Below are positions 1 through 29,956 of a stretch of DNA of 29,956 bases, piece after piece. The position numbers and the translations under genes were made by a program. The stretch lies in the IMG/VR virus record IMGVR_UViG_3300020044_003359, positions 1-29,956 of that record. The stretch is one strand, 5' to 3'. Source of the stretch: a virus. Lineage: Duplodnaviria; Caudoviricetes. Position 1 is the stretch's first letter, and the number at the start of each line of letters is the position of its first letter. Under the pieces are notes generated by a model. The model was not told the origin of the DNA, did no database searches, and saw only the letters and a list, made by a program, of their open reading frames with translations.

Positions 1-121
1 TTTCCGAAAAATGTTTCATTGATAATGGCGATGAAAAAAAATGATCCTTGATTTGATCGTGTTTTAAACCCATTTGTAGTTTTTTTTCAAAATTAGCCAA
101 ATAACTAATTAGTAAAACCGA
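1..121. repeat. Terminal direct repeat, copy 1 (identical to 29836-29956); circular assembly overlap
   Basis: Bases 1-121 (tttccgaaaa...agtaaaaccga) match the last 121 bases exactly. The repeat spans the start of the metallophosphoesterase gene. Confidence 0.95.
88..112 (-). promoter_or_regulatory. Bacteroidota-type -7 promoter box (TAATTTTG) with upstream CTAATTAG palindrome, preceding the metallophosphoesterase (copy at 29923-29947)
   Basis: Minus strand reads CTAATTAGTTATTTGGCTAATTTTG, 14 nt before the ATG at 73 (=29908). It is 22/25 identical to 17281-17305. Confidence 0.6.
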
Positions 122-126
122 TAAAT

Positions 127-162
127 AAAACAAAAATGGCCGTAGATTATTCCACGACCATT
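127..162 (-). terminator. Intrinsic terminator closing the tail operon / candidate sRNA
   Basis: Minus strand AATGGTCGTGGA-ATAA-TCTACGGCCATT followed by TTTGTTTT. The two G-U wobbles only pair on the minus strand. Confidence 0.7.
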
Positions 163-240
163 CTGCATTCACCCTAATCAACATCCGATGCACTTATTAA
201 GTACACGGATGCGCACTACCAAACCTATGAAAAACAAATT
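127..240 (-). ncRNA. Candidate 3'-UTR-derived antisense small RNA
   Basis: Central hairpin (181-212) and terminator. The single-stranded 5' arm (222-240) is complementary to the start region of gene 26844-27308 (18 Watson-Crick pairs plus 1 G-U over 19 nt). Confidence 0.4.
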
Positions 241-2167
241 ATTCCTGATATGAAACCCTGTATGTTGTTGCCACATCCGTATAATTATTAGGGATATGGA
301 ATTGACAGGTGTATATATTTGATTTTAATTGCACACGAATTGAATCAACAATTGCCGAATCTGTTTCGGTTAATGTGTCAAATTTTACCCATAATTTATG
401 TGCCATTGACATAATTGAATATTGATCCTGATTATATAAATCGCCCTCATATTGCATTGAAAATTGTCTAAAATCATTTATTCTTTGCTGTGTGACTATT
501 TGCTCTAAATATAATCCGTTAACATCCTGCGCACGTTTAAATGAATTATTATCAGTAAATGCACCCGAAAATACAACTGAATCAATATCAGCCTGAACAA
601 CATCAGAATGTTCCATTACATCAGATGTCACAAATGTACCTGATTGCTCACGTATAAACCATGCCTCTTTGTACACGTTTTGTTCTTTGTCAATATTACG
701 AACTGCGCAATTATCTAAAAACATTCCTGTGTATGATCCAGGTGCATCAATATATGGATATGAAAAACCCAATTGAATTTGTCCTGGTTCTGGTGCCTCT
801 TTTGTAGTGAATTTAAATGATTCAAATGTTCCATTTCCAACAACCTGCGTGGTATTCCATAAAACCGTTCCTCCTGATGTTCCCCACGTTTTGTTCACTT
901 CACTCCAATATTGATATGCTCCAGGTGAATATTCAATCCGTAAAAACCACGGCAACCTGTTATCGCTTCCGCCTTTATTAATATTAACTGAAAATAAAAC
1001 CTGATATTGATTGCCTTTAATTGCTGATAATGCACCTGAACTTACCAATCGTGTTGTATATGTATTTAATGCACTTGTTCCCACATATTTCAATGATCTA
1101 CGGCCTGCAAATGGTGTATTAACAAATTCTGTTGTGACCAATGTTGTTGACCAATTTTCATAGTCAAATTCAAATGATGCATTTAAATTCAAATCCTCTT
1201 GCTTTTGTGAAATATCAACAATCTGTTGGTATTTTTTTACCGGCCTGCGTGGTGTTCTAAACAAATTTTGACCTATTGGCAACATATTTGTTGGGATTAC
1301 TTTCAACATATTTGTTGTCACTGATGATTGGGCAACACCTAATGAATTATAAATCCAAAATTTGATGTTTTCTGTACCTCCATTTAAAAATCCTTGCTTT
1401 GCTGTTAAAATACCAGATCCTGAATATGTTCCTGCCTGAATCCCTGCAATAATACGTTGATCACCATATGATGAACAATTGATGATATACCAACGGCCAA
1501 ATGATTGAAAAATACGGCAATTGAATCCAAGTAATATTGAACGCAATGTCATTTTAGCGTCATTGATTATATATGAATCATGATAGAATCCAACTTTTTT
1601 AATTGTAACCTGATCAAAAACGTTTTTCCATGCTGTATCTGTTCCAATACGTATATCATTACTGATATAAATGTCATATCCTAATGAAAGGTTTGACAAC
1701 GCATTCCACATGAATTTCCATAATGTTTGATTATCAGTTCCAATTGCAGGCATCCATGTATCATATGCATCTAATTGGCCCAAATTATCTGTTGCTGTAA
1801 TTGAAAGTGAATATGGTGTTGAAACCAATGCCTGTGAATATAGATCGTTTACAACCCAACCTGACCAATAAACGGCCCAATTGTTGGCCATGTATTCGTA
1901 ATAAACAATTACTTTGTATTCACGTTCATCGTACAAATAAAAATTGTCATATGTCACATCATCTGTGACCATTAAATTCAACGTGCATAATGATCCAATT
2001 AATGGCTCATATAAATCCTCCTCAGCCTTCCACTCAATTTCAACCGGCTCACTTGTGCCAATCATAGGCAAAACGGCCCCTGTGTATCCATTTTTTAAAA
2101 TTTCAACTTTGCGTTTATTGCCTTTTATGTCGGAAAATTCCAACCGATATTTCACACCGTATGCCAT
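239..2167 (-). CDS. Tail tip / baseplate hub-like structural protein with a probable internal carbohydrate-binding-like segment
   Basis: 642 aa directly after the tape measure. The N-terminus MAYGVKYRLEFSD... is typical of post-TMP proteins of Bacteroidota siphoviruses. The internal 'LNLNASFE...W' segment is CBM-like. Confidence 0.6.
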   Translation of the reverse strand: MAYGVKYRLEFSDIKGNKRKVEILKNGYTGAVLPMIGTSEPVEIEWKAEEDLYEPLIGSLCTLNLMVTDDVTYDNFYLYDEREYKVIVYYEYMANNWAVYWSGWVVNDLYSQALVSTPYSLSITATDNLGQLDAYDTWMPAIGTDNQTLWKFMWNALSNLSLGYDIYISNDIRIGTDTAWKNVFDQVTIKKVGFYHDSYIINDAKMTLRSILLGFNCRIFQSFGRWYIINCSSYGDQRIIAGIQAGTYSGSGILTAKQGFLNGGTENIKFWIYNSLGVAQSSVTTNMLKVIPTNMLPIGQNLFRTPRRPVKKYQQIVDISQKQEDLNLNASFEFDYENWSTTLVTTEFVNTPFAGRRSLKYVGTSALNTYTTRLVSSGALSAIKGNQYQVLFSVNINKGGSDNRLPWFLRIEYSPGAYQYWSEVNKTWGTSGGTVLWNTTQVVGNGTFESFKFTTKEAPEPGQIQLGFSYPYIDAPGSYTGMFLDNCAVRNIDKEQNVYKEAWFIREQSGTFVTSDVMEHSDVVQADIDSVVFSGAFTDNNSFKRAQDVNGLYLEQIVTQQRINDFRQFSMQYEGDLYNQDQYSIMSMAHKLWVKFDTLTETDSAIVDSIRVQLKSNIYTCQFHIPNNYTDVATTYRVSYQE

Positions 2168-2170
2168 ATT

Positions 2171-4393
2171 TTATCCTATTCTGTTTCTTTGTTTTTCTGC
2201 TCTCTGTAAAGCTACCACCAAATCTTGGCCTCTCAACACAAATTCACCTGACATTGCACCGCCTCCGCTATTGCCTTGATCCAACATTCCCTGCAATTTG
2301 TTTAATGGTGCAATTACTTCCGGATTCGATTTTGCGCCTGGATATTCACCCATCAAACCCATTGTTGGGCCTGATACGATACCACCTGCGGCAAACTTTG
2401 GAATGGCTGCAAATGCTGATAATACACCACCAATTGCCGTCGCAATGAATGCAGGTGTTGTGAATACCGCTGCCGGCCCTGTTGCGGCTCCTGATTGCGT
2501 TGCACCTGCAATTGATGCTGCCATTGCTGATGCCTGGTTCATAATAATTTGTTGCAAAATCATTGATCCTAATTTAACCAATGTTTGCATCATTACCTGT
2601 GCAAATCCTTCAAATCCTGTGGATGCCAACCCCATTGATTGAACAATTGAATCACCCAATGATGTAAATGCCTGACCTGTTGTATCTGCAACCATTTGGC
2701 CAATTGACATTATATTATTGTATTTTAATACCAATGCATCTAATTGCTCACTTTGTAACGTTGTTGATGCAACAATTGCCGCATCCATCACGGACAATGG
2801 TGATTTTAGTGATCCCAACGATGTTGTGATTCCCATTATTTTTTCACCAATTGCAGGGAATTTTTCAAAATGTTTTGTTAAATCACCGGCAAATGTTGGC
2901 AAATATTTGACATCTTTTGTGTCTCCAAATGATGCAAATTTAGCTGCCGCCAAATCCTTTTTGGCTATTTCCTCATCTAATTGTTTGGATTTTAATTTAG
3001 CTAATTGAATTTCAAGTAAATGATCTTTTTCAATTTTGAATGCCTTTTCTTTGCCTCCTAATGCTGCCGAAATTCTTTGTTGTTCCTTCTTTGCCTCCGC
3101 ATCTGATTGGGCTGTCAATACCGCATCCGTTTTGCCTTTTTTCTCTAAACTTGCAATCAATGCATTATTTTGTGCCAACAATTTTTGTTGACCTTTAATT
3201 TGTGCATCAATGGATTGTGGAGAAATACCCTGTGCCGTATTCATTCCGGTTATTGGGCCGGATGCCATTCCTTTCTGCTTTTGCAATAATGCAATTGACG
3301 CTAAAATCTCTTTGTTTTTGGCTCTAATTGCTGTGGCATCTCTTTTTTCTTGCTCTGTTAATTTATTATCCGGATTTAATGCTTTTGCATAATCATATGC
3401 TGATTTTGCTGCAACTCCAAACAATGTCGCTAATCCTGCGATTCCTGTTGCGGATGTCAATGTCAAATTAAATTTAACCGCTGCCGCACTCATTAAATTG
3501 AAACCGGTGATTACCTTTGGAACAATTGTGCCAACTAAAAACAACAATGGCCCTGTTGCTGCTGCAATTAATCCCAACGTTACCACAAAACTTTTTGTGC
3601 TATTACTTGCACCTGAAAACTCTGTGATCATTCCATTTGCTGCCCTTGTTATTGATGTAACTGCCGGCAACATAACCTGACCAATTTCAGCACTTAATTG
3701 TTTCATTCCCTCCCCAAACATACGCATCTGATTGGCTGCGTTTTCGTTTGTTCGTGCAAAGTCACCCTGTGCATTCTTTGTGACCGACATAACATATTGA
3801 TAACGCAACATCACTTTTTCAGCCTGTGACATTGTATCGTATTGCTTTGTGATGCCTTGTGCAAATGCATATGCTTTCACATTGGCTTCGGTCATTACAA
3901 TACCCAAACGTTTCAATGATTCTGTTTCACCGGTAAAAATTCCGTTCAATGCTGTTTGTGCAACATCAATTCGGATGTTTTTAAACGATGCCATGTCACC
4001 GGCTAATCCAACTAATGATGTGGATAATTTTGCAGCCTCACCAACACCTAATCCCATTGATGTTGCCATATCTCCGAAATTGGATGCCATATCCAATGCC
4101 GTGCCTGATGCAATACCATATGTTTTCAATGATGTTTTGGCAAAATCACTCACCGATGTGGATGCGCTTTTAAATGACACATCAACTTTGTTCAATGATT
4201 CATTGAAATCTGATGCCATTTTAATTGATGCCGCACCGGCTGCCAATAATGGTGCCGTTACATATGTGGACAATGTTTTGCCCATTTCAGCCGCTTTCTT
4301 TGAAAAACTGACTAATGATTTCTGCGCATCTGATAACGCTAAATCCAGATCGGTTGCATCACCGGTTATTCGTACTTTTAATTCTTCTGCCAT
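2171..4393 (-). CDS. Tail tape measure protein
   Basis: 740 aa, Ala/Gly/Leu-rich and helical, following the G/GT chaperones. Motifs: GETESLKRLGI, GDFART, C-terminal FAAGGIVSGPT...GE...NPEVIAPL. Confidence 0.9.
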   Translation of the reverse strand: MAEELKVRITGDATDLDLALSDAQKSLVSFSKKAAEMGKTLSTYVTAPLLAAGAASIKMASDFNESLNKVDVSFKSASTSVSDFAKTSLKTYGIASGTALDMASNFGDMATSMGLGVGEAAKLSTSLVGLAGDMASFKNIRIDVAQTALNGIFTGETESLKRLGIVMTEANVKAYAFAQGITKQYDTMSQAEKVMLRYQYVMSVTKNAQGDFARTNENAANQMRMFGEGMKQLSAEIGQVMLPAVTSITRAANGMITEFSGASNSTKSFVVTLGLIAAATGPLLFLVGTIVPKVITGFNLMSAAAVKFNLTLTSATGIAGLATLFGVAAKSAYDYAKALNPDNKLTEQEKRDATAIRAKNKEILASIALLQKQKGMASGPITGMNTAQGISPQSIDAQIKGQQKLLAQNNALIASLEKKGKTDAVLTAQSDAEAKKEQQRISAALGGKEKAFKIEKDHLLEIQLAKLKSKQLDEEIAKKDLAAAKFASFGDTKDVKYLPTFAGDLTKHFEKFPAIGEKIMGITTSLGSLKSPLSVMDAAIVASTTLQSEQLDALVLKYNNIMSIGQMVADTTGQAFTSLGDSIVQSMGLASTGFEGFAQVMMQTLVKLGSMILQQIIMNQASAMAASIAGATQSGAATGPAAVFTTPAFIATAIGGVLSAFAAIPKFAAGGIVSGPTMGLMGEYPGAKSNPEVIAPLNKLQGMLDQGNSGGGAMSGEFVLRGQDLVVALQRAEKQRNRIG

Positions 4394-5126: not shown

Positions 5127-5153
5127 TATTGTTTGATTAGGTGTTAAACTTTG

Positions 5154-5221
5154 AAACCCTGCACCATTTTACTGATGCAGGGAATATATTTTGCAATCAG
5201 TAAATTATGCGTTTACTGACT
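5154..5221 (-). promoter_or_regulatory. Attenuator-like set of mutually exclusive hairpins at the tail-tube stop codon
   Basis: Segments AGTCAGTAAA (5212-5221), TTTACTGATT (5195-5204), CCCTGCATCAGTAAA (5168-5182) and TGGTGCAGGG (5157-5166) can pair 1:2, 2:3 and 3:4. Confidence 0.45.
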
Positions 5222-5615
5222 TAACGATTGCTCCTGTCAATGTGATTGATCCTGAGAATGTCACCGCTGCTTCCATCTCTGCTGATTGCTCGATTGATGC
5301 AATGTAACCCTCTGCTGTATAAATAACATCACCTGATGCAGCCGTTCCAAATACGCAAGTAACAACCGTGCGATTCAATACGTAATCAACTAATTCTTCA
5401 GCGTTTGCACCTGATGTGTAATTTACTAAACCATCAAATGAAATTTCGCCAGAACGTAATCCGCTGATTCCCTCAGACCAACCTGATGAATCCTTTGTTG
5501 TTGCATCTGCAATGTCCTGTGAAATAGACAATGAACATGATGTTGTGTGTGCAATGGCCGTTCCCTCAACTTTGATCAATAGGTTCGTGCCGTTAAATAC
5601 TCCCGATGTTGCCAT
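5205..5615 (-). CDS. Major tail (tube) protein, TP901-1/Phage_tail_2-like
   Basis: Motifs NGTNLLIKV, TTKDSSGWSEGISGLRSGEISFDG, YTAEGYIASIE, TFSGSITLTG. Located just upstream of the chaperones. Confidence 0.85.
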   Translation of the reverse strand: MATSGVFNGTNLLIKVEGTAIAHTTSCSLSISQDIADATTKDSSGWSEGISGLRSGEISFDGLVNYTSGANAEELVDYVLNRTVVTCVFGTAASGDVIYTAEGYIASIEQSAEMEAAVTFSGSITLTGAIVKSVNA

Positions 5616-5648
5616 ATTTTTGTTTTATTTTTATGCTCTTATTTTATG

Positions 5649-7375: not shown

Positions 7376-10300
7376 TTATGCTACGTTTAATTGTTTTTCT
7401 AATTCTGCAACTCTTTTTTCTAATCGTGCAATTTTAGCTGTGTGAACTTCACGATATGATAATGAAAGAAATCCATCTGCATTTTTTGTGACTGCATATG
7501 GCATTAATTTTTCGGCATCCTGTGCAAAATATCCTAATTCAATTTTGCCATTCTTTTCATATAATTTTGCCTCTAAATTTTCAATACCTTCAATTTGTGC
7601 TAATCCATTTATTAGCTTTTTTAACCTAATATCTGATGATTCAAAAAATGATGTTGCCGTAATTGATGAACTAAACCAAGCTGCCCCACTATTAGCAATA
7701 TTAAATGCCTGTGTGCCTGATCCAGGTACGTTTTCAGATGTTGCATTTACCCATAATATAAATTGACCTCCTCCACTATAATCATAACCTAATCCTGCAT
7801 ATTTAGATGAATTAGAATTAAATACAAATACAGGGAAAATTGATGATACCATTGCTGTTCTAACCCATCCACCTGTCATTGTTGTCCCACCATTTGCGTG
7901 CATTGGTGCCAATGGTGATGTAGTTCCAAGACCGACATATCCTGAATTAGTAACAATCATTCCATTTCCACTTCCTCCTGTTAATGTTATAAATCCATTT
8001 ATGCTGTCTGTCGATCCTTTTATTGTACCCCAATTGGATGCATTAGAATTTAATAATCTTATTTCATAGCTTGATGGTACTAAAAAATTTAATGCTGACA
8101 CGCTATTTGAAAATGTTGCCGCACCGTTTGTTGCAATTTTTAACCCTGATGAATTTGTTCCATTAGCCGTTAACCATAAATTTTTGCCTGATGGGGAATA
8201 AATATATGCATCCGAATTATTCCATGTCCAAATTCCTCCTCCTAATCCATTATTGCCAACATATAAAATATCACCTGTTGTTACGGTTGACGAAAATTTT
8301 GCTGCACCTGAATTTAAAATTTGCAATGCTACAGTTCCAACTCCACTTAAATTGTCACTTGATGCATTAACCCAAAAATTAAGACCAACTGAATGATCAT
8401 AACCAATACCTGCCCATTTTGTTGCTGTTGAATTAAATATTAATACAGGAAATGATGCCTGCAATGTTGTTGTTTTATTCCAACCACCTGTCATCAATGC
8501 GCCTCCATTAACGTGTAAAATTGACGCAGGTGATGCCGTATTTATACCGACATTTGTTCCATTATCATAAATTAAACTATTCCCTAGTGCACTACCTGAT
8601 GTCCATTTTGGAATGTAACTTGTTGTGCCTGATCCTGTAATTCCTCCACCACCTGTTGTTACTGATCCATCAGCCATCAAATATTGACTTGATGTTCCAC
8701 CGGCTTTTATAAACGATGATGCTGTCATCGTTCCTGTATTTATTGCATTACCTGAAGGTGTAATCTGGAATTTTGTTGCACCTGCCGTTTGATCATAAAT
8801 GTAAAAATATCCTGAATCAACAAATAGTGTATAATCAGGATTATTATCTGTATCTGTAAAATACAATTTTGGTGCAATTCCGCTGATGGTCATATTTCCT
8901 GTAAATACAGGATTTTCAGCATCGGCCTTTAAAGCTAATTTAGCTAATACGGCATTGCTATTAGGATATTCGGTATCACTTGCCAATAAATTAGACACCA
9001 TTTTATCTAATCTTTGATATGTACTTGTTGCCGTTGAAATCAATAAATAATTGGCCAATGTTGCCGATGATACATATGAATTTGAATCAATTGATCCATC
9101 AGCCTTTAAAAATTGACTTGACGTACCGCCTGATTTTGCTATTGATCCAACCGTAACATCACCAGGAAATATAGATGAACCTGATGATGTAATATAAAAA
9201 CGACTGACCGTATTTGTTTGATCATAAATCCGCAAATATCCATCATCATTGCCAATAAAATAATCAGGATTATTGTCACTATCTGTTAAATAAATTTTTG
9301 GATATGCTCCACCAATTGTCATATAACCTGTAAATGATGGGTTTTCCGCATCTGCTTTCAATGCCAATTTTGCCAAAACTGCATTTGAATTAGGATATTC
9401 CGTATCACTTGCCAAAAGGTTAGACACCATTTTATCAATTCTTTGATACGTTGATGCAGCCGTAGTGATCAATAAATAATTTGATAATGTACTAATTGGG
9501 GCATATGATGTTGAATCAATGCTGCCATCTGCTTTAAAAAATTGCGATGATGTGCCACCTGATTTTGAAATAGTTCCAATTTCTAAATCTCCCGGAATAA
9601 ATGTTTTTCCTGCTGGATTAATATAAAATCTTGCAGCCGATCCGGTATCTTGATAAATTGTTAATGTTCCTGTATTATACCCAATTAAAAATTTTCTTGT
9701 ATTATATTGATCATAAAAATTGATTCTTGATTCAATTCCTGTGATATTCATTGAACCTGTAAATTCAGGATTTTCAATGTTAGCCTTTAAATTTAATTTG
9801 GCAATAACTGCATTAGAATTTGGGTATTCTGTATCACTTGCAAGCAAATTAGACACCATTTTGTCTAATCTTTGTGGTGTATATCCTAATGCATCATCAA
9901 TCGTTTTGTTTTTCCAAAGACTTGTTGATGTCTCATAAAATATACCTTCATTATTTGATGGTGTACGTGCTGAAACATTGTGTAATTCATCCAATTCAAA
10001 ACCATTTTGAACATTTACAAATATTTCCCCATTGTTTGATTGCACCCGTGTCACCACTCCAATATAAACCATGTGTGCAGGTGCATATGGTTTATTTGCT
10101 AATCCAAATAATAATGTTCCATTTGGCCCCAACCAAACAGGATCACCTGCCGTTGCTGCTGATGTATCTAATCCATCAATCAATCCAAATGTAACGCATT
10201 CAACAATATCATTCAAAACACCACCTGTTTCAAGTAAACCAAACGTTTTTGATGATGTGGCTTCCGTAGTATTTGATGATGCAGACACAATCATATTTGT

Positions 10301-10888
10301 TCCATTTGCTGATGAAACATAAACCGGTGTCCCTTTTGATAACGTTGCCCCTAATTTTACCTCATTTCTGGTTTTTGATGCAGAATTTGGCAATGTAGCA
10401 ATTGAACCATCACCACGTATATATTGCTCAATTGTGCCTGTTGGATTATCATATTTTTCATCTAATGCATTTTGCAAATCTGTTTGATTGCTTAATGTCC
10501 CTACAATATCACCCCATGTTCCGCCTCCACTATCTAATGTCCAGGTTCTGTTTTGACTTAAATCATACGTGGTATTATTAATGGTAATTAATCGTGTTTG
10601 TGGCACCGGTGTGTATCCCAATGCCATAATCACCTGTGAACTTGTGATGCCGGTCAAATACGTATTACCATCAATTGATCCATCAGCCTTTAAAAACTGC
10701 GTGGCTAAACCATTAGTGACCTTGTATTTATTTGCTCTGATAAAACCCTGAGAATCAAGAAAAATTCCTGATCCACCACCATATCCATCTGTGATTTGTT
10801 TTTCTGATGCAATTAGGATGTCATTATCAATGGTTTTTAATAATGCTCTGTATGTTTCTGCGACTAACTTCCCGGTTAATGTTGCCAT
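7376..10888 (-). CDS. Tail fibre / receptor-binding protein with C-terminal intramolecular chaperone (peptidase S74-like)
   Basis: 1170 aa, Gly/Ser/Thr-rich, with NVGINT.SP repeats. C-terminal SSDIRLKK...GYFAQD...LSY...coiled coil is the S74 signature. Confidence 0.85.
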   Translation of the reverse strand: MATLTGKLVAETYRALLKTIDNDILIASEKQITDGYGGGSGIFLDSQGFIRANKYKVTNGLATQFLKADGSIDGNTYLTGITSSQVIMALGYTPVPQTRLITINNTTYDLSQNRTWTLDSGGGTWGDIVGTLSNQTDLQNALDEKYDNPTGTIEQYIRGDGSIATLPNSASKTRNEVKLGATLSKGTPVYVSSANGTNMIVSASSNTTEATSSKTFGLLETGGVLNDIVECVTFGLIDGLDTSAATAGDPVWLGPNGTLLFGLANKPYAPAHMVYIGVVTRVQSNNGEIFVNVQNGFELDELHNVSARTPSNNEGIFYETSTSLWKNKTIDDALGYTPQRLDKMVSNLLASDTEYPNSNAVIAKLNLKANIENPEFTGSMNITGIESRINFYDQYNTRKFLIGYNTGTLTIYQDTGSAARFYINPAGKTFIPGDLEIGTISKSGGTSSQFFKADGSIDSTSYAPISTLSNYLLITTAASTYQRIDKMVSNLLASDTEYPNSNAVLAKLALKADAENPSFTGYMTIGGAYPKIYLTDSDNNPDYFIGNDDGYLRIYDQTNTVSRFYITSSGSSIFPGDVTVGSIAKSGGTSSQFLKADGSIDSNSYVSSATLANYLLISTATSTYQRLDKMVSNLLASDTEYPNSNAVLAKLALKADAENPVFTGNMTISGIAPKLYFTDTDNNPDYTLFVDSGYFYIYDQTAGATKFQITPSGNAINTGTMTASSFIKAGGTSSQYLMADGSVTTGGGGITGSGTTSYIPKWTSGSALGNSLIYDNGTNVGINTASPASILHVNGGALMTGGWNKTTTLQASFPVLIFNSTATKWAGIGYDHSVGLNFWVNASSDNLSGVGTVALQILNSGAAKFSSTVTTGDILYVGNNGLGGGIWTWNNSDAYIYSPSGKNLWLTANGTNSSGLKIATNGAATFSNSVSALNFLVPSSYEIRLLNSNASNWGTIKGSTDSINGFITLTGGSGNGMIVTNSGYVGLGTTSPLAPMHANGGTTMTGGWVRTAMVSSIFPVFVFNSNSSKYAGLGYDYSGGGQFILWVNATSENVPGSGTQAFNIANSGAAWFSSSITATSFFESSDIRLKKLINGLAQIEGIENLEAKLYEKNGKIELGYFAQDAEKLMPYAVTKNADGFLSLSYREVHTAKIARLEKRVAELEKQLNVA
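8658..9874 (-). repeat. Three tandem ~143-aa (429-nt period) repeats inside the tail fibre
   Basis: QR(L/I)DKMVSNLLASDTEYPNSNAV occurs three times. The anchor agacaccat lies at 8993, 9422 and 9851. Confidence 0.9.
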
Positions 10889-19792: not shown

Positions 19793-20977
19793 TTAAACCA
19801 CAAAAAAATCAGAACGGTTTTTGTATTTAGTATAAACACCATATCGAATTGCATCCATTAGGTGATTGTGTTTGTCTATTGGCTTATTTATAATCGTTCC
19901 ATCCTTTAATTGCTCCCAAAAATAAAACTGAAATTCATTATGCAAATTATGCGATTCCATCGAACAAATGACCTCATGTTCTTTTAGCAAACTAATTCCG
20001 GCCTTTATTGATCCCTCACCTTTAATTGCAGGAACCGCCAAAATATCCATCTGCCTCAATTCCTCAATTGATTTGGGTTCCGCTGATTCGCAATAGATTA
20101 TGTGTTCATTTATTTTCTTTTCTTTTAAATAATCAGCAATATCACGGTTTGTCATCCCTTTTTTATACATAATTTCATGGATGTACAATTTATCACCAAC
20201 CTTTGCCAATTGCACAATGGCCGTTGGATCATGACTGAATCCAAAATCCAATCCATAAAACACATCATCAAATTCAGGGAAATCCGCCTTTGGAATAAAT
20301 TTCCAATTAGGGAATATTTGGCGATCACTAAACACCGCACGTTTACCCTCACCGTACACCCTCCAATAATCCGGATCTTTTGCTTTTAATCTTTCGATTT
20401 CATTGACCAATTCAGCCGGTAAAAACTTATTATCCAAATATGTTGTGATCCAGGTATCACAATCATCACGTGTGATCACTTCATCGTAAATCCAATGCAC
20501 CGGATCAGATGGATTAAAATCGCAAATCATCTCATCTGTTGTACGCATCAATAATTGCCTGAAATCCTCATGATCCAATTCGTTTACCTCGTTGCAATAG
20601 CAAATATTTCGTTTCCGGCCCCTGATCTTTTGTGGCTCATCAACTGATAAAAATTCAACAACGTGACCACCAAACGTGTACGTGTTTTCAGATTTATTGT
20701 GTTGGCCCACATAAAGGATGCCCAAATTATCAAGAATTTCAAGAAAGTCACGTTGAACTGATCCCTTCAATGCCGGCAATGTTTTCCGTACAATTGAAAT
20801 CACCAATGGTTTCGGTGATGATGTCATTTTATAAATCAGGTATTGACACAGGGCATAGGTTTTCCCCGAACGTGTTCCGCCCTGATGTACTTTTATCCTT
20901 TTATTGCTGTTTAATGTCTGATAAAACTGAATGTTGCATTTCTGCCCTATTCGTTTTCGATTGTTGCCGGTGTCCAT
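19793..20977 (-). CDS. terL: Terminase large subunit, PBSX/SPP1-like
   Basis: Walker A GGTRSGKT, Walker B-like CYCNE, DFNP, nuclease motifs GLDFGFSHDPTA and NHLMDAIRY. Confidence 0.93.
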   Translation of the reverse strand: MDTGNNRKRIGQKCNIQFYQTLNSNKRIKVHQGGTRSGKTYALCQYLIYKMTSSPKPLVISIVRKTLPALKGSVQRDFLEILDNLGILYVGQHNKSENTYTFGGHVVEFLSVDEPQKIRGRKRNICYCNEVNELDHEDFRQLLMRTTDEMICDFNPSDPVHWIYDEVITRDDCDTWITTYLDNKFLPAELVNEIERLKAKDPDYWRVYGEGKRAVFSDRQIFPNWKFIPKADFPEFDDVFYGLDFGFSHDPTAIVQLAKVGDKLYIHEIMYKKGMTNRDIADYLKEKKINEHIIYCESAEPKSIEELRQMDILAVPAIKGEGSIKAGISLLKEHEVICSMESHNLHNEFQFYFWEQLKDGTIINKPIDKHNHLMDAIRYGVYTKYKNRSDFFVV

Positions 20978-22153: not shown

Positions 22154-22190
22154 TTTAAATTGATTAGGTAAATATGTGCTTTTGTTTCCG

Positions 22191-22226: not shown

Positions 22227-22613
22227 TTAATCTTTCCATAGGTTCGACATTGGTTTTTCCCAAGTATCAATCCCATATGATTTTAATAAAATATTAATCT
22301 GTGTATTCAATCCATCTTTCTTTGTTTGATCCATCTGATCCATTTCCATTCCAAGCATAAAAAATGACTCCATAGCTGTGCAAGCATTTTGGAACGTATC
22401 CAATGCATCAGGCAATTCAGGATCATCGTTTTTATTTGGGGGGAATAATACGGCCATTGTTTTTTCCAATTCCCTTACCATTTGTTTTGTGACCATTTTC
22501 ACGGCCTGTTTATTTGCCGGATGACCATGCCATGATCCATCAATGAAATCCAACATATTTTGGCATAATGCAAAAAATGTCAATAATCTGATTTTGTCTT
22601 TTGTCGTTCTCAT
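22227..22613 (-). CDS. Hypothetical protein
   Basis: 128 aa, ATGA-coupled to the upstream gene. Confidence 0.7.
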   Translation of the reverse strand: MRTTKDKIRLLTFFALCQNMLDFIDGSWHGHPANKQAVKMVTKQMVRELEKTMAVLFPPNKNDDPELPDALDTFQNACTAMESFFMLGMEMDQMDQTKKDGLNTQINILLKSYGIDTWEKPMSNLWKD

Positions 22614-22801
22614 AGGTTTTCAATATCTAATAAATCTTTGGGGAATTTGTATGGATCAATACACAGGTCAATTTTGACAATCTTATGGAATATCATTATT
22701 TCCTGTATCTCCGTAATTATATCTAATGCATCTTCACGTGTGATGGAATCTGAACATTTAATGTCACCATGCACAAATATATCATCATCGCTGTATGTCA
22801 T
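22610..22801 (-). CDS. Hypothetical protein
   Basis: Likely start ATG 22801 (MTYSDDD), overlapping the end of the upstream gene. Confidence 0.6.
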   Translation of the reverse strand: MTYSDDDIFVHGDIKCSDSITREDALDIITEIQEIMIFHKIVKIDLCIDPYKFPKDLLDIENL

Positions 22802-23009
22802 TGTAAAACATTTTAAGATTTCGAACTCTATTGTAAACAACACGTTTTTCCCTTTCTGATCCGTACATCAGCCGGGCAACACACGTTTCCAAGAATAATT
22901 TTGGATTGTGAATCAATTCCCATGCATTCACACGTATTGGCTCCTCACTAAAATTAGGATCGGCAATTTTTTCGTTTGCCCATTCAATGGCTCTTTCACG
23001 GTTTGTCAT
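22785..23009 (-). CDS. Hypothetical protein
   Basis: 74 aa with an A-rich leader (AAAACCT-ATG). Confidence 0.65.
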   Translation of the reverse strand: MTNRERAIEWANEKIADPNFSEEPIRVNAWELIHNPKLFLETCVARLMYGSEREKRVVYNRVRNLKMFYNDIQR

Positions 23010-23226
23010 AGGTTTTTTTAATTTTAATTACATAATTAATATATGCAGGTTGATGATTATGTTTAAAATCTTGATGGTATTCAATGAATGAATTAATAAT
23101 TTGAATATTACCATAATTTAATTCAGCCATAAAATCTGCGTGCCTTCGCATTCCACTTGTTCCTGTTTGAAATGCAATATGCTTGTATTGATATTTTGGG
23201 AACAACCTTCTAAATAATTTTTTCAT
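22996..23226 (-). CDS. Hypothetical protein
   Basis: Likely start ATG 23226 (MKKLFRRL). The longer track ORF overlaps the 23234-23380 gene. Confidence 0.55.
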   Translation of the reverse strand: MKKLFRRLFPKYQYKHIAFQTGTSGMRRHADFMAELNYGNIQIINSFIEYHQDFKHNHQPAYINYVIKIKKTYDKP

Positions 23227-24055: not shown

Positions 24056-24262
24056 TTAATTTATTATCTGATTTGCATCAATATCCAACATTTTGCACAC
24101 CCTTAATCCTGTGATCATGTTTGGAACCATTTTGCCTGAAATCCAATTGCACACTGATGAATGTGTGCTGTTGATCTCATCGGCTAATTCCTGCCTGCTC
24201 ATATTCTTTTGTTCCAATGCTTTTAGCACCAATGTGCCAAATTCTGTTTCCTCTGCTTTCAT
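24056..24262 (-). CDS. XRE/Cro-family helix-turn-helix regulator
   Basis: KNMSRQELADEINSTHSSVCNWISGKMVP....LRVCKML. Confidence 0.88.
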   Translation of the reverse strand: MKAEETEFGTLVLKALEQKNMSRQELADEINSTHSSVCNWISGKMVPNMITGLRVCKMLDIDANQIIN

Positions 24263-25757: not shown

Positions 25758-26033
25758 TTACATTAACATCGCACCTTTTAACGGCTTAAATCTGAAAAGA
25801 TTACCATATTGCGGATGCTCTAAAACAAATTTACGTGCATACATTGGCGCAAAATTGTTGTTGATTTTAAATGGATCATTATTAGATTGGAATGCGTAAT
25901 TGTATCGCATTTCCTCAAATATGTACTTTGATCCAATTTGCCTGCGCCCTTCGTTTGCCATCTTTATTGCGATGGATTTGTACAACTCATAAATGTGTTT
26001 GTTGCTTTGATCGTATTGTTGAAACGTTACCAT
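25758..26033 (-). CDS. Phage hypothetical protein
   Basis: 91 aa, 'IGSKYIFEEMRY...FKINNNFAPMYARKF'. Confidence 0.7.
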   Translation of the reverse strand: MVTFQQYDQSNKHIYELYKSIAIKMANEGRRQIGSKYIFEEMRYNYAFQSNNDPFKINNNFAPMYARKFVLEHPQYGNLFRFKPLKGAMLM

Positions 26034-26148
26034 GATTATATTGTTTTGGGTGAATAATATGTAATTTCTTTCTGTTACGTTCTAATTCTTTGGCGATATG
26101 CGCCCAAACCTGGTTGAACGTGTATCCTAATTCATTTGTTTTTTCCAT
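25987..26148 (-). CDS. 53-aa hypothetical protein (absent from the ORF track)
   Basis: MEKTNELGYTFNQVWAHIAKELERNRKKLH...; fills the gap between its neighbours. Confidence 0.45.
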   Translation of the reverse strand: MEKTNELGYTFNQVWAHIAKELERNRKKLHIIHPKQYNHGNVSTIRSKQQTHL

Positions 26149-26843: not shown

Positions 26844-27308
26844 TTATTTAATAATTTTCTTGATTGTGGTTGTGGATGTTTTCGATGGTGGGTAAAAATC
26901 CATAAATTCCCCTGTTTCTTCATCCAATGTGGATGTCTTTGATTTCAATGCCTTACAAAATGCCTCAACCTCTTTTTGTTTTTCTTTTAGACGATCGATT
27001 TCAAATTGCAACTTGCACCAGGATTCGGTTTCCGAATAGTCATATTTTACACCGCCTTCCATTTCTGAAAAGTCAACACCGAATGCAGACAATTTACTAT
27101 CTTTATTTTGACGCAGATCAACAAATAAATGGTCTTTGATGTGTTTGTCCATCTCTGATGCTAACAATTGAAATTTGGCCAATTGTGCCGCCAATTTTAC
27201 AACGTTGATTGATTCTGGATTGGCCATGAATGATTCGGCCATCTGCGCAATCTCTTTTTTGTTTAAATCTAAGATTTGGCCATCAACGGCCATCAATTCG
27301 TTTTTCAT
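26844..27308 (-). CDS. Hypothetical protein of the recombination module
   Basis: 154 aa between Erf and the SSB-like gene. Confidence 0.7.
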   Translation of the reverse strand: MKNELMAVDGQILDLNKKEIAQMAESFMANPESINVVKLAAQLAKFQLLASEMDKHIKDHLFVDLRQNKDSKLSAFGVDFSEMEGGVKYDYSETESWCKLQFEIDRLKEKQKEVEAFCKALKSKTSTLDEETGEFMDFYPPSKTSTTTIKKIIK

Positions 27309-27322
27309 AGGTTGTTTGATTA

Positions 27323-28927: not shown

Positions 28928-29908
28928 CACAATTTTGCCATCTTTTATCATAATATTATCAACCTTTGATTTACCATCTGTGATTGTAACCACCGCAAAT
29001 CCGTTGTTGTGTTGTGCAAATGGATAGTATTTTGGCGATAATTGTGTCAAACATCCTGTTGAATACGTGTGGATGAAATTTTTAAATCCATCCTTTTTGA
29101 TCGTATTGGTTGTCCTGTGAACGTGACCAATCAATGTATTGCAGAATGTTTTATTGAATGTGCTTTGTGATGGGTTCATACCACCGGCCATCAGTTCGTG
29201 TCCGTGACATACCAACAAATCGCCCATTTCCATGCCCTGCCAATCAGGAACAAATTTCATATCCAATGAATCTAACCTAAAAAACTTATCAAATTGCATT
29301 TCGTGCAACTGCGCAAATTCTTCTGCCTGCTCATTCAAATACCTCTGGTATCTATTTTCGTGATTTCCAGCCTTAAAATAGATAGGTATATTGGGGAAAA
29401 TATCACGCAACTTTTGCAGAAAATTTCGGCACATTTCAATTTCTTTTGGAAAATCACGTAAATCCTTTTCCTTTTCGTGCCGGCTAATGCTGTAAAAATC
29501 GAATGTGTCTCCATTTAGATACAGGCAATCAATGTTTTCTGCCTTCAATTGTTTGATGGCCGCCACAACGGCTTCAACTGAATGAAACGGAACGTGAATG
29601 TCACTAAGTATTCCAATTTTTTTCAAATGATCTGGTAATCGATCTGATGTGTATTCCTTCCCAATTGATGGTTCAATGCCGAAATTATCCATTTCGTCCC
29701 ATTCCATTGATTCAATGTGTGCCTTTGGTAAATTGGCCAAATTCTGTTCCGCCCTTGTTCGTGACAATATATTGTAACGGCTCATCATCTTTCGCATCTG
29801 CTTTGCATCTGAATACCCATATGATTCATGGTATTTTTCCGAAAAATGTTTCATTGATAATGGCGATGAAAAAAAATGATCCTTGATTTGATCGTGTTTT
29901 AAACCCAT
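28925..29908 (-). CDS. Calcineurin-like metallophosphoesterase with N-terminal extension
   Basis: All five motifs present: SDIH, NGDTFD, GNHE, HGH, GHVH. Likely start ATG 29908. Confidence 0.9.
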   Translation of the reverse strand: MGLKHDQIKDHFFSSPLSMKHFSEKYHESYGYSDAKQMRKMMSRYNILSRTRAEQNLANLPKAHIESMEWDEMDNFGIEPSIGKEYTSDRLPDHLKKIGILSDIHVPFHSVEAVVAAIKQLKAENIDCLYLNGDTFDFYSISRHEKEKDLRDFPKEIEMCRNFLQKLRDIFPNIPIYFKAGNHENRYQRYLNEQAEEFAQLHEMQFDKFFRLDSLDMKFVPDWQGMEMGDLLVCHGHELMAGGMNPSQSTFNKTFCNTLIGHVHRTTNTIKKDGFKNFIHTYSTGCLTQLSPKYYPFAQHNNGFAVVTITDGKSKVDNIMIKDGKIV

Positions 29909-29956
29909 TTGTAGTTTTTTTTCAAAATTAGCCAAATAACTAATTAGTAAAACCGA
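29836..29956. repeat. Terminal direct repeat, copy 2
   Basis: Identical to 1-121. Confidence 0.95.

Follow-up and report, generated by a model that had tools for sequence, protein, structure and literature searches.

The window analysed here is the whole of a 29,956-nucleotide viral contig, of which the first 121 bases are identical to the last 121 (1-121 and 29836-29956). The map is therefore circular, with a length of 29,835 bp. End repeats of 121 nt occur in a relative (G004) too, where they fall elsewhere in the gene order, a pattern that assembly of a circular or permuted genome would give. All the genes in the ORF list are on the minus strand, and family scans of these ORFs gave the layout of a small siphovirus: early genes (metallophosphoesterase, Erf annealing protein, replication initiator, a 68-aa helix-turn-helix protein at 24056..24262, minus strand, and a VRR-NUC nuclease), packaging and head genes (DUF3310, ParB-like nuclease, terminase, portal, protease, and capsid), and tail genes (major tail protein, a gene in the chaperone position, tape measure, and a last gene of 642 aa). 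No recognisable integrase or repressor module appeared in the scans of the window. A 1170-aa gene (7376..10888) contains three diverged copies of a 429-nt unit (8663-9919), and the C-terminus of its product is similar to tail-fibre and virion structural proteins.

The last late gene (239..2167, minus strand) comes directly after the tape-measure gene (2171..4393, minus strand), and its 3′ UTR is the element described in this work. Searches of Pfam and PHROG with its 642-aa product gave no match; the N-terminal 228 aa are similar to structural proteins of Flavobacterium, Cellulophaga, and Salinibacter phages. All 10 records of cultured phages among the relatives of this protein infect Flavobacterium, Cellulophaga, or Salinibacter and no other host, and Bacteroidota or Balneola is named in the title of 8 of the 9 genome-bin loci of distant relatives; hence, the host is likely a member of the Bacteroidota. 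The capsid protein found only matches of ~30% identity, in phages of so many hosts that they are of no help on this point, and a nucleotide search of positions 1-2500 against cultured phages gave no match. On the other side of the element lies the first early gene, coding for the metallophosphoesterase, which starts at the ATG at 73 and continues over the contig ends as far as 28925. About 15 nt upstream of this ATG we read by eye a box TAnnTTTG (88..95, minus strand), a motif that we take to be the Bacteroidota-type -7 promoter consensus and, on that basis, a candidate promoter of the gene. The box flanks the element from outside, and its position is kept in every freshwater clade of relatives (described below). 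Since the map is circular, the element sits between the end of the late operon and the early promoter. Upstream of the element itself, inspection by eye found no TAnnTTTG box conserved across clades.

The element occupies positions 240-127 of the minus strand, after the TAA stop codon (241-239) of the late gene. In the consensus fold, it starts with an unpaired, T/G-rich 5′ arm (213..238) that holds a CAT and the motif TAGGTT, followed by a hairpin of 14 bp with a 3-nt loop (hairpin 1, 181..212) and by an unpaired linker between the two hairpins (167..180), our candidate seed. It ends in an intrinsic terminator (123..166, hairpin 164-133) detected by pattern scan and folding. All four parts are on the minus strand, where the initial annotation had placed them, calling the linker the 3′ arm. 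The core stem of the terminator (159-138) is extended by pairing of an A-tract with a U-tract and runs into a T-run (136-123), which gives the G+C-rich stem-loop and subsequent U-run of an intrinsic terminator. The minimum free energy of the 146-nt fold is −45.2 kcal/mol (z = −5.17), a stability not attained by any of 200 shuffles. As in small RNAs derived from 3′ UTRs, the element is located in the 3′ UTR of a coding gene, ends on the same strand at the intrinsic terminator of that gene, and includes a conserved unpaired stretch, the linker, as predicted seed.

A search of positions 1-700 against Rfam with cmscan, at E-values up to 10, gave eight weak matches, all far below the gathering threshold; the sole match inside the element paired the terminator with CsrC at 14.7 bits (gathering, 61), in agreement with the earlier remark that no named family fits this locus. 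ARAGORN detected neither tRNA nor tmRNA genes, and the idea of a tRNA fragment or attachment site was rejected, given that there is no tRNA, the neighbouring gene is the metallophosphoesterase, and there is no integrase. In positions 1-3000, the single metatranscriptome run identified, X12 (0.07 share of sampled words), gave assembled contigs only, which covered 18-96, 67-178 (two contigs), and pieces of the tail gene. The DNA contigs of run X1 stop at 178 too, where relatives differ in hairpin 1.

The last tail protein was used to recover relatives, which included 39 IMG/VR loci, 80 metagenome loci, and further clades. Clade A, to which the window belongs (81-87% protein identity), comprises 35 sequences, 28 of them distinct. 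Its 3′ UTRs have an almost invariant arm and linker, while the upper stem of hairpin 1 varies yet stays paired. Clades B, B2, C, C2, D, and D2, with 42-78% identity to one another or to the window, share a common order at this place: stop codon, an arm with TA(G/A)GGTT, a hairpin of unrelated sequence, a linker with an invariant TTAGGTT core, terminator, T-run, and early promoter box. Taking all the freshwater clades A-D together, the linker core is kept as TTAGG(G/T)T. A covariance model built from clade A (R1) gave a single copy in each of the 18 freshwater sources, always at this place; the E-value is 0.24 in the D2 locus L170 and lies between 2.6e-30 and 3.6e-4 in the other 17. The model also found one copy per genome in four of five further whole genomes. 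In L057, a weak second match (9092-9185, E 0.034) is located ~1.1 kb downstream of the true element. The alignment A3 was fitted to the model structure, so its pair counts are inflated; in it, 96.8% of cells pair versus 77.6% in shuffles (none of 500 reaches this value) and 41-49% with slid partners, and both sides have changed in 18 of 30 pairs, divided between hairpin 1 (11 of 14 pairs; 96.0% of cells pair) and the terminator (7 of 16; 97.5%).

By this comparative prediction, the late operon closes at its 3′ end with a structured RNA element that is conserved and ends in a terminator. The alignments show its place to be fixed, with the last late gene on one side and the early promoter on the other, in no fewer than six related freshwater clades. 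In distant marine relatives (L063-L127, with tail proteins 29-37% identical), the terminator hairpin is immediately preceded by a conserved T-rich stretch that contains CCTTGTTTGC. At the 3′ end of their tail gene we detected no hairpin 1, and model R1 had no copy in nine marine loci. They also contain exact complements of 9-14 nt to some gene starts, counted as raw matches.

The relatives also bear on whether the region might be translated. Two frames are open in the window: a plus-strand minigene of eight codons from 227, which the initial annotation had itself set against an RNA at this site, and an N-terminal extension of the metallophosphoesterase from an ATG at 184, a 364-aa form that is among the first-ATG ORF calls. 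A longer T-run in the arm occurs in 20 of the 28 distinct sequences (24 of 34 relatives), where a difference of 1 nt shifts the frame of the minigene, and clades B, C, and D have other short frames at the site or none, so that this frame is not kept. The start of the extension is either absent from relatives or differs among them (364, 336, or 328 aa), its translation would read through a terminator with a covarying stem, and homologues align only from the ATG at 73. A coding function of either type is thus very improbable.

The initial annotation had proposed that the unpaired segments anneal to start codons of the phage's own genes. For each clade, arms and linkers from one or two genomes were compared by RNAduplex with every start window (−30 to +15), using dinucleotide shuffles of the arm or linker as the control and the best energy and top-3 mean as scores. 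The best partner of the window's arm is the start region (27294..27313, minus strand) of a 154-aa early gene (26844..27308) next to the Erf gene. With 27313-27295 the arm pairs over 19 nt with one G-U, or over a run of 20 with two G-U if the stop codon is included, and the energy of −23.9 kcal/mol is better than that of all 4228 background windows. The arm also pairs at 14 of 15 positions with the start (23001..23015, minus strand) of a 74-aa gene with a weak DUF6965 match (22785..23009), and over a run of 13 with one G-U with the start (22607..22619, minus strand) of a 128-aa gene (22227..22613). These are the three duplexes of the original proposal, and each of them was reproduced. Among 57 start windows, the best energy of the arm is reached by 1 of 150 shuffles and its top-3 mean by none, and AACCTATG is found six times versus 0.79 expected, a number that none of 100 shuffles reaches. 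Two more sense copies of AACCTATG are inside coding regions and are not real starts (22237-22244 and 20854-20861, minus strand); the five clade A genomes examined all retain the copy at 22244.

The whole 114 nt, compared with 49 start windows, pairs no better than shuffles, of which 227 of 300 do as well. Exact inverted repeats of at least 14 nt are ordinary in this genome (11, versus 2-15 per genome in 30 shuffled genomes), and the exact core of the arm pairing has just this length of 14 nt. A reader free to pick within 30 kb could find such a pair by chance, and therefore the case rests on the relatives. The pairing of the arm is significant in clade A only, and in the other clades tested it is not above shuffles. 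Within clade A, 21 distinct arm/target combinations gave no sign of covariation (cognate −19.8 versus non-cognate −19.4 kcal/mol), and the arm variants that pair more weakly, a 1-nt deletion in L029 (−17.4 kcal/mol), a G insertion in L057 (−19.8 kcal/mol), and a 3-nt insertion in L058 (−13.9 kcal/mol), have no compensating change in the target. The predicted pairing between arm and targets in clade A is, then, inherited rather than compensated.

These results are in keeping with a rival account, in which the locus is just the end of the late operon, made of a terminator and a hairpin that would protect the 3′ end, and the pairing is incidental, the product of a G/U-rich 3′ UTR meeting A/C-rich, G-poor leaders. 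The terminator and the hairpin are the best-supported features of the element, and the T-rich stretch plus terminator is all that the distant marine relatives have there. However, the arm and linker, which are unpaired, are more conserved than the stem sequence of the hairpin, a conservation that a mere stabiliser does not need.

In the window, CCTAATCAA is present exactly three times, a number reached by 3 of 100 shuffles: once on the plus strand (173-181) and twice on the minus strand, in two leaders with which a pairing of 9 of 9 had been proposed and which are indeed exact copies. One (5133..5141) belongs to the 129-aa gene in the chaperone position, between the major tail and tape-measure genes, and the other (22160..22168) to the DUF3310 gene, the first of the packaging block. 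A third partner, of 8 nt, is the leader (26048..26055, minus strand) of a 91-aa gene (25758..26033). The chaperone-position leader is kept in relatives and ranks 2-4 among the linker partners in clades A, B, B2, and D, and the DUF3310 leader recurs as a partner in clades C and D2. The leader of the 128-aa gene, an arm partner in clade A, ranks first or second among linker partners in clades C, D, and D2, and the annealing-protein gene is a linker partner in clades B, B2, and C.

Between the major tail and chaperone-position genes (5160-5184, minus strand) we noticed by eye a short hairpin followed by T-rich sequence; located just upstream of the linker-complementary leader, this could be a partial terminator. 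The T-run of the element's terminator (123-137) is also complementary, over 15 nt and without mismatch, to the leader of the major tail gene (5616-5630, ATG at 5615), a pair found as well in the relative G001; the sequence is of low complexity and such lengths occur in shuffles.

The window's own linker is not significant against starts: its best energy is reached by 31 of 150 shuffles and its top-3 mean by 10. Other genomes gave much lower counts for best energy and top-3 mean, respectively: 0 and 0 of 150 in a clade B genome (G003), 8 and 0 of 150 in another genome of clade A (G001), and, per 100 shuffles in the five further whole genomes, 1 and 0 (clade C, G006), 0 and 0 (clade C, G007), 3 and 2 (clade D, G008), 0 and 1 (clade D2, G009), and 1 and 0 (clade B2, G010). 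The linker beats 97-100 of 100 shuffles in all five of the latter; a partial D2 locus was null (80 and 49 of 150). As the clades have common ancestry, these are not fully independent tests. In the genomes G003 and G010, the longest exact inverted repeat of the entire genome is formed by the linker and the leader of the Erf gene (20 nt, abutting the ATG), while the longest in 20 shuffles of each genome is 17 nt at most, and the third longest (15 nt) joins the linker to another leader. This 20-mer occurs twice in L044, versus 0.01 expected. Thus, complementarity to distant mRNAs that is kept and above chance, as in known 3′-UTR small RNAs, was found in the family and is weak for the window's own linker.

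Leaders in these genomes are rich in A, C, and T and poor in G, so that any G/U-rich RNA pairs with them. A candidate leader motif, A(C/T)CTAA, was 5-8 fold enriched against a uniform expectation and was dropped, since composition-matched 6-mers did equally well or better. The absence of a motif above composition-matched controls fits incidental pairing, whereas the results with dinucleotide shuffles of the linker in five of five whole genomes, and the 20-nt repeat that tops two genomes, do not. We conclude that the conserved part of the predicted seed is the linker, centred on UUAGGUU, and that the 5′ arm is its weaker half. The original idea that pairing to start regions exceeds shuffles was borne out for the arm, and failed both for the complete element and for the window's linker.

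Changes in linker and target were then compared between clades. Linkers paired better with leaders of their own clade than with those of others for Erf (cognate −16.1 versus non-cognate −12.3 kcal/mol), the chaperone-position gene (−16.1 versus −13.8 kcal/mol), and p91 (−12.7 versus −9.9 kcal/mol), and seven control genes differed by at most 1.0 kcal/mol. The p131 leader, a recurrent linker partner, had a cognate gain of only 0.3 kcal/mol, and p154 gained nothing with the linker. In clades D and D2, 15 nt of the linker match codons 5-10 of the p53 homologue exactly. A single position distinguishes the two clades, where the linker has T/G and the target A/C, and on the target side the difference replaces an amino acid (Asn/His). 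In a clade C genome (G006), Erf has been replaced by an unrelated annealing protein of the Sak family (PF06378, E 3e-45), and the gene (L131, 10773-11405) keeps a linker-complementary leader that is the best partner in that genome (−24.6 kcal/mol). The two clade C genomes, with a Sak-family (G006, L131) or an Erf-family gene (G007, L135), have the same leader in the same slot. The association between the p91 leader and the G/T variant of the linker is imperfect, with the other leader type in 2 of 7 distinct GT-linker combinations, in a comparison of small numbers and related sequences.

The comparison of clades therefore shows compensatory changes between linker and predicted targets (D versus D2, and B versus C) at the level of sequence. 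Structure was retained in every freshwater source and compensation was found for the linker, so that the expectation of a conserved and compensated pairing in relatives held for this half of the element and not for the arm. These changes also speak against a role restricted to termination and 3′-end protection, and with the evidence on both sides we consider that role unlikely.

Sequences repeated before several genes could also act as DNA, either as sites of a phage regulator similar to operators or stoperators or as boundaries of modular recombination, one copy happening to be inverted behind the last tail gene. Leaders of different genes within one genome do have 15-20 nt in common, the shared leader of the two unrelated annealing-protein genes is what would be seen at a mosaic joint, and the helix-turn-helix protein mentioned above would be a candidate regulator. 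However, the sole inverted copy is the one in the element, where it forms the unpaired part of an RNA structure under selection, and neither invertase nor integrase was found among the 33 window ORFs scanned. The partners do not match one core of the linker. Different targets pair with different, overlapping parts of it, which fits RNA seeds better than a single protein site. One partner is inside a coding region, with the amino acid changing in step with the linker. Finally, the ACCTAA of the chaperone-position leader in clades A and B is ATCTAA in clades C and D, a change that would alter a DNA site but keeps the pairing with the linker through G-U. A DNA role seems quite improbable on these grounds.

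The explanation that we favour is that the element is an antisense RNA that would block translation of genes of the same phage after the onset of late transcription, to which we assign a probability of roughly 0.55. The element would be transcribed as the tail of the late mRNA and might remain part of it or be released by cleavage as an RNA of ~110 nt. The linker, and in clade A also the arm, would then anneal to the leaders or first codons of certain genes, predicted to be those of the single-strand-annealing protein and its neighbours, the 128-aa gene, the DUF3310 gene, and the gene in the chaperone position. In a host that does not use Shine-Dalgarno pairing, annealing could keep ribosomes off the A-rich start regions. 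Both repression as the direction of the effect and late infection as its timing are what we infer, and a variant would be action in cis, on read-through or polycistronic transcripts.

Chances are about even for a broader version of this antisense explanation, in which a terminator-embedded riboregulator with a UUAGGUU seed is family-wide in these uncultured siphophages of freshwater Bacteroidota. It would have recurring start targets in their own genomes: the single-strand annealing protein of whatever family, its small neighbours, the 128-aa/DUF3310 pair, and the gene at the tail-chaperone position. The original proposal of a multi-target RNA directed against start codons survives in part: unpaired segments are complementary to the phage's own start regions above shuffles, with compensation between clades, but the 5′ arm on which the proposal was centred is significant in clade A only and does not covary. 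In the same way, early starts are among the predicted targets as proposed, and the set extends to the late chaperone-position gene and to the gene that opens the packaging block.

Since start sites in Bacteroidota and their phages lack Shine-Dalgarno pairing, little is known of how their gene expression is controlled after transcription. If the antisense explanation is correct, late transcription would reprogramme the translation of earlier modules with no Shine-Dalgarno element involved, and the element would be the first multi-target base-pairing RNA of a phage to be reported from the Bacteroidota. A search of the literature on small RNAs of Flavobacterium phages and on phage-encoded UTR-derived small RNAs, with subscription journals outside its scope, found no such element in Bacteroidota phages. 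With predicted targets that co-vary, it could serve as a compact model for RNA gating of translation in such hosts, and it would offer a phage genome with all its genes on a single strand and in a single orientation a way to time its modules without extra proteins. The conserved RNA structure is new, absent from Rfam, and could help to recognise this phage group in metagenomes. Even if the pairing is incidental, the locus is a well-defined junction of late terminator and early promoter for the annotation of these genomes.

Short repeats just upstream of many start codons of one phage genome are known from mycobacteriophages, whose stoperators and start-associated sequences are sites in DNA or RNA that all face one way and lack an antisense copy. 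The repeats described here resemble them in position, but the composition-matched control did not support a general start-associated motif. Base-pairing small RNAs derived from 3′ UTRs are known in bacteria as the CpxQ type, reportedly in work of Chao and Vogel from 2016, and we know of no established Hfq-type help for such RNAs in Bacteroidota. Like them, the element is at the 3′ end of a coding gene and shares its intrinsic terminator, with a conserved single-stranded seed upstream of the terminator hairpin and several predicted mRNA partners at gene starts. Unlike them, it is phage-encoded, its predicted targets are genes of the phage itself, and it is known from sequence alone.

Antisense regulators of phages, such as the c4 RNA of P1/P7, sar of P22, OOP of lambda, and CI of P4, act in decisions on immunity or lysogeny and are transcribed early or within the immunity region; two of them, sar and OOP, work as cis-antisense RNAs, and the recognition sequences and targets of c4 differ together between related phages. 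The element would share with this group the pairing of a phage RNA with the start or another part of the phage's own mRNA and, with c4, a seed and targets that differ together between clades. It differs in its location at the end of the late operon, in a genome in which we recognised no integrase or repressor module, and in having predicted targets across the genome.

A precedent in the host phylum is GibS of Bacteroides thetaiotaomicron, which represses mRNAs by annealing at start regions without Shine-Dalgarno sequences, as shown by deletion, complementation, gel shifts, and in-line probing (PMC7366714); its mode of action is reportedly also treated in PMC7797042. The setting, in Bacteroidota that do not use Shine-Dalgarno sequences, is the same, and a long, unpaired, AT-rich seed of GibS anneals around start codons. 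GibS, however, is intergenic and host-encoded and has its own promoter and a 5′-end seed; we found no likeness between the two in sequence or structure, in line with the Rfam result. UTR-derived non-coding RNAs have been found by RNA data in the Pseudomonas phages phiKZ and 201phi2-1 (PMC8545117, PMC11512511). These are structured RNAs from the UTRs of phage genes, some conserved in related phages and placed by tail genes, mostly 5′ UTR in origin and with no known targets, whereas our element, known from its sequence, has predicted targets that co-vary with it. A host 3′-UTR RNA that inhibits an mRNA of a filamentous phage has also been reported (PMC13250501). By analogy with these systems, the element would work like a base-pairing small RNA derived from a 3′ UTR and like the trans-acting antisense RNAs of phages.
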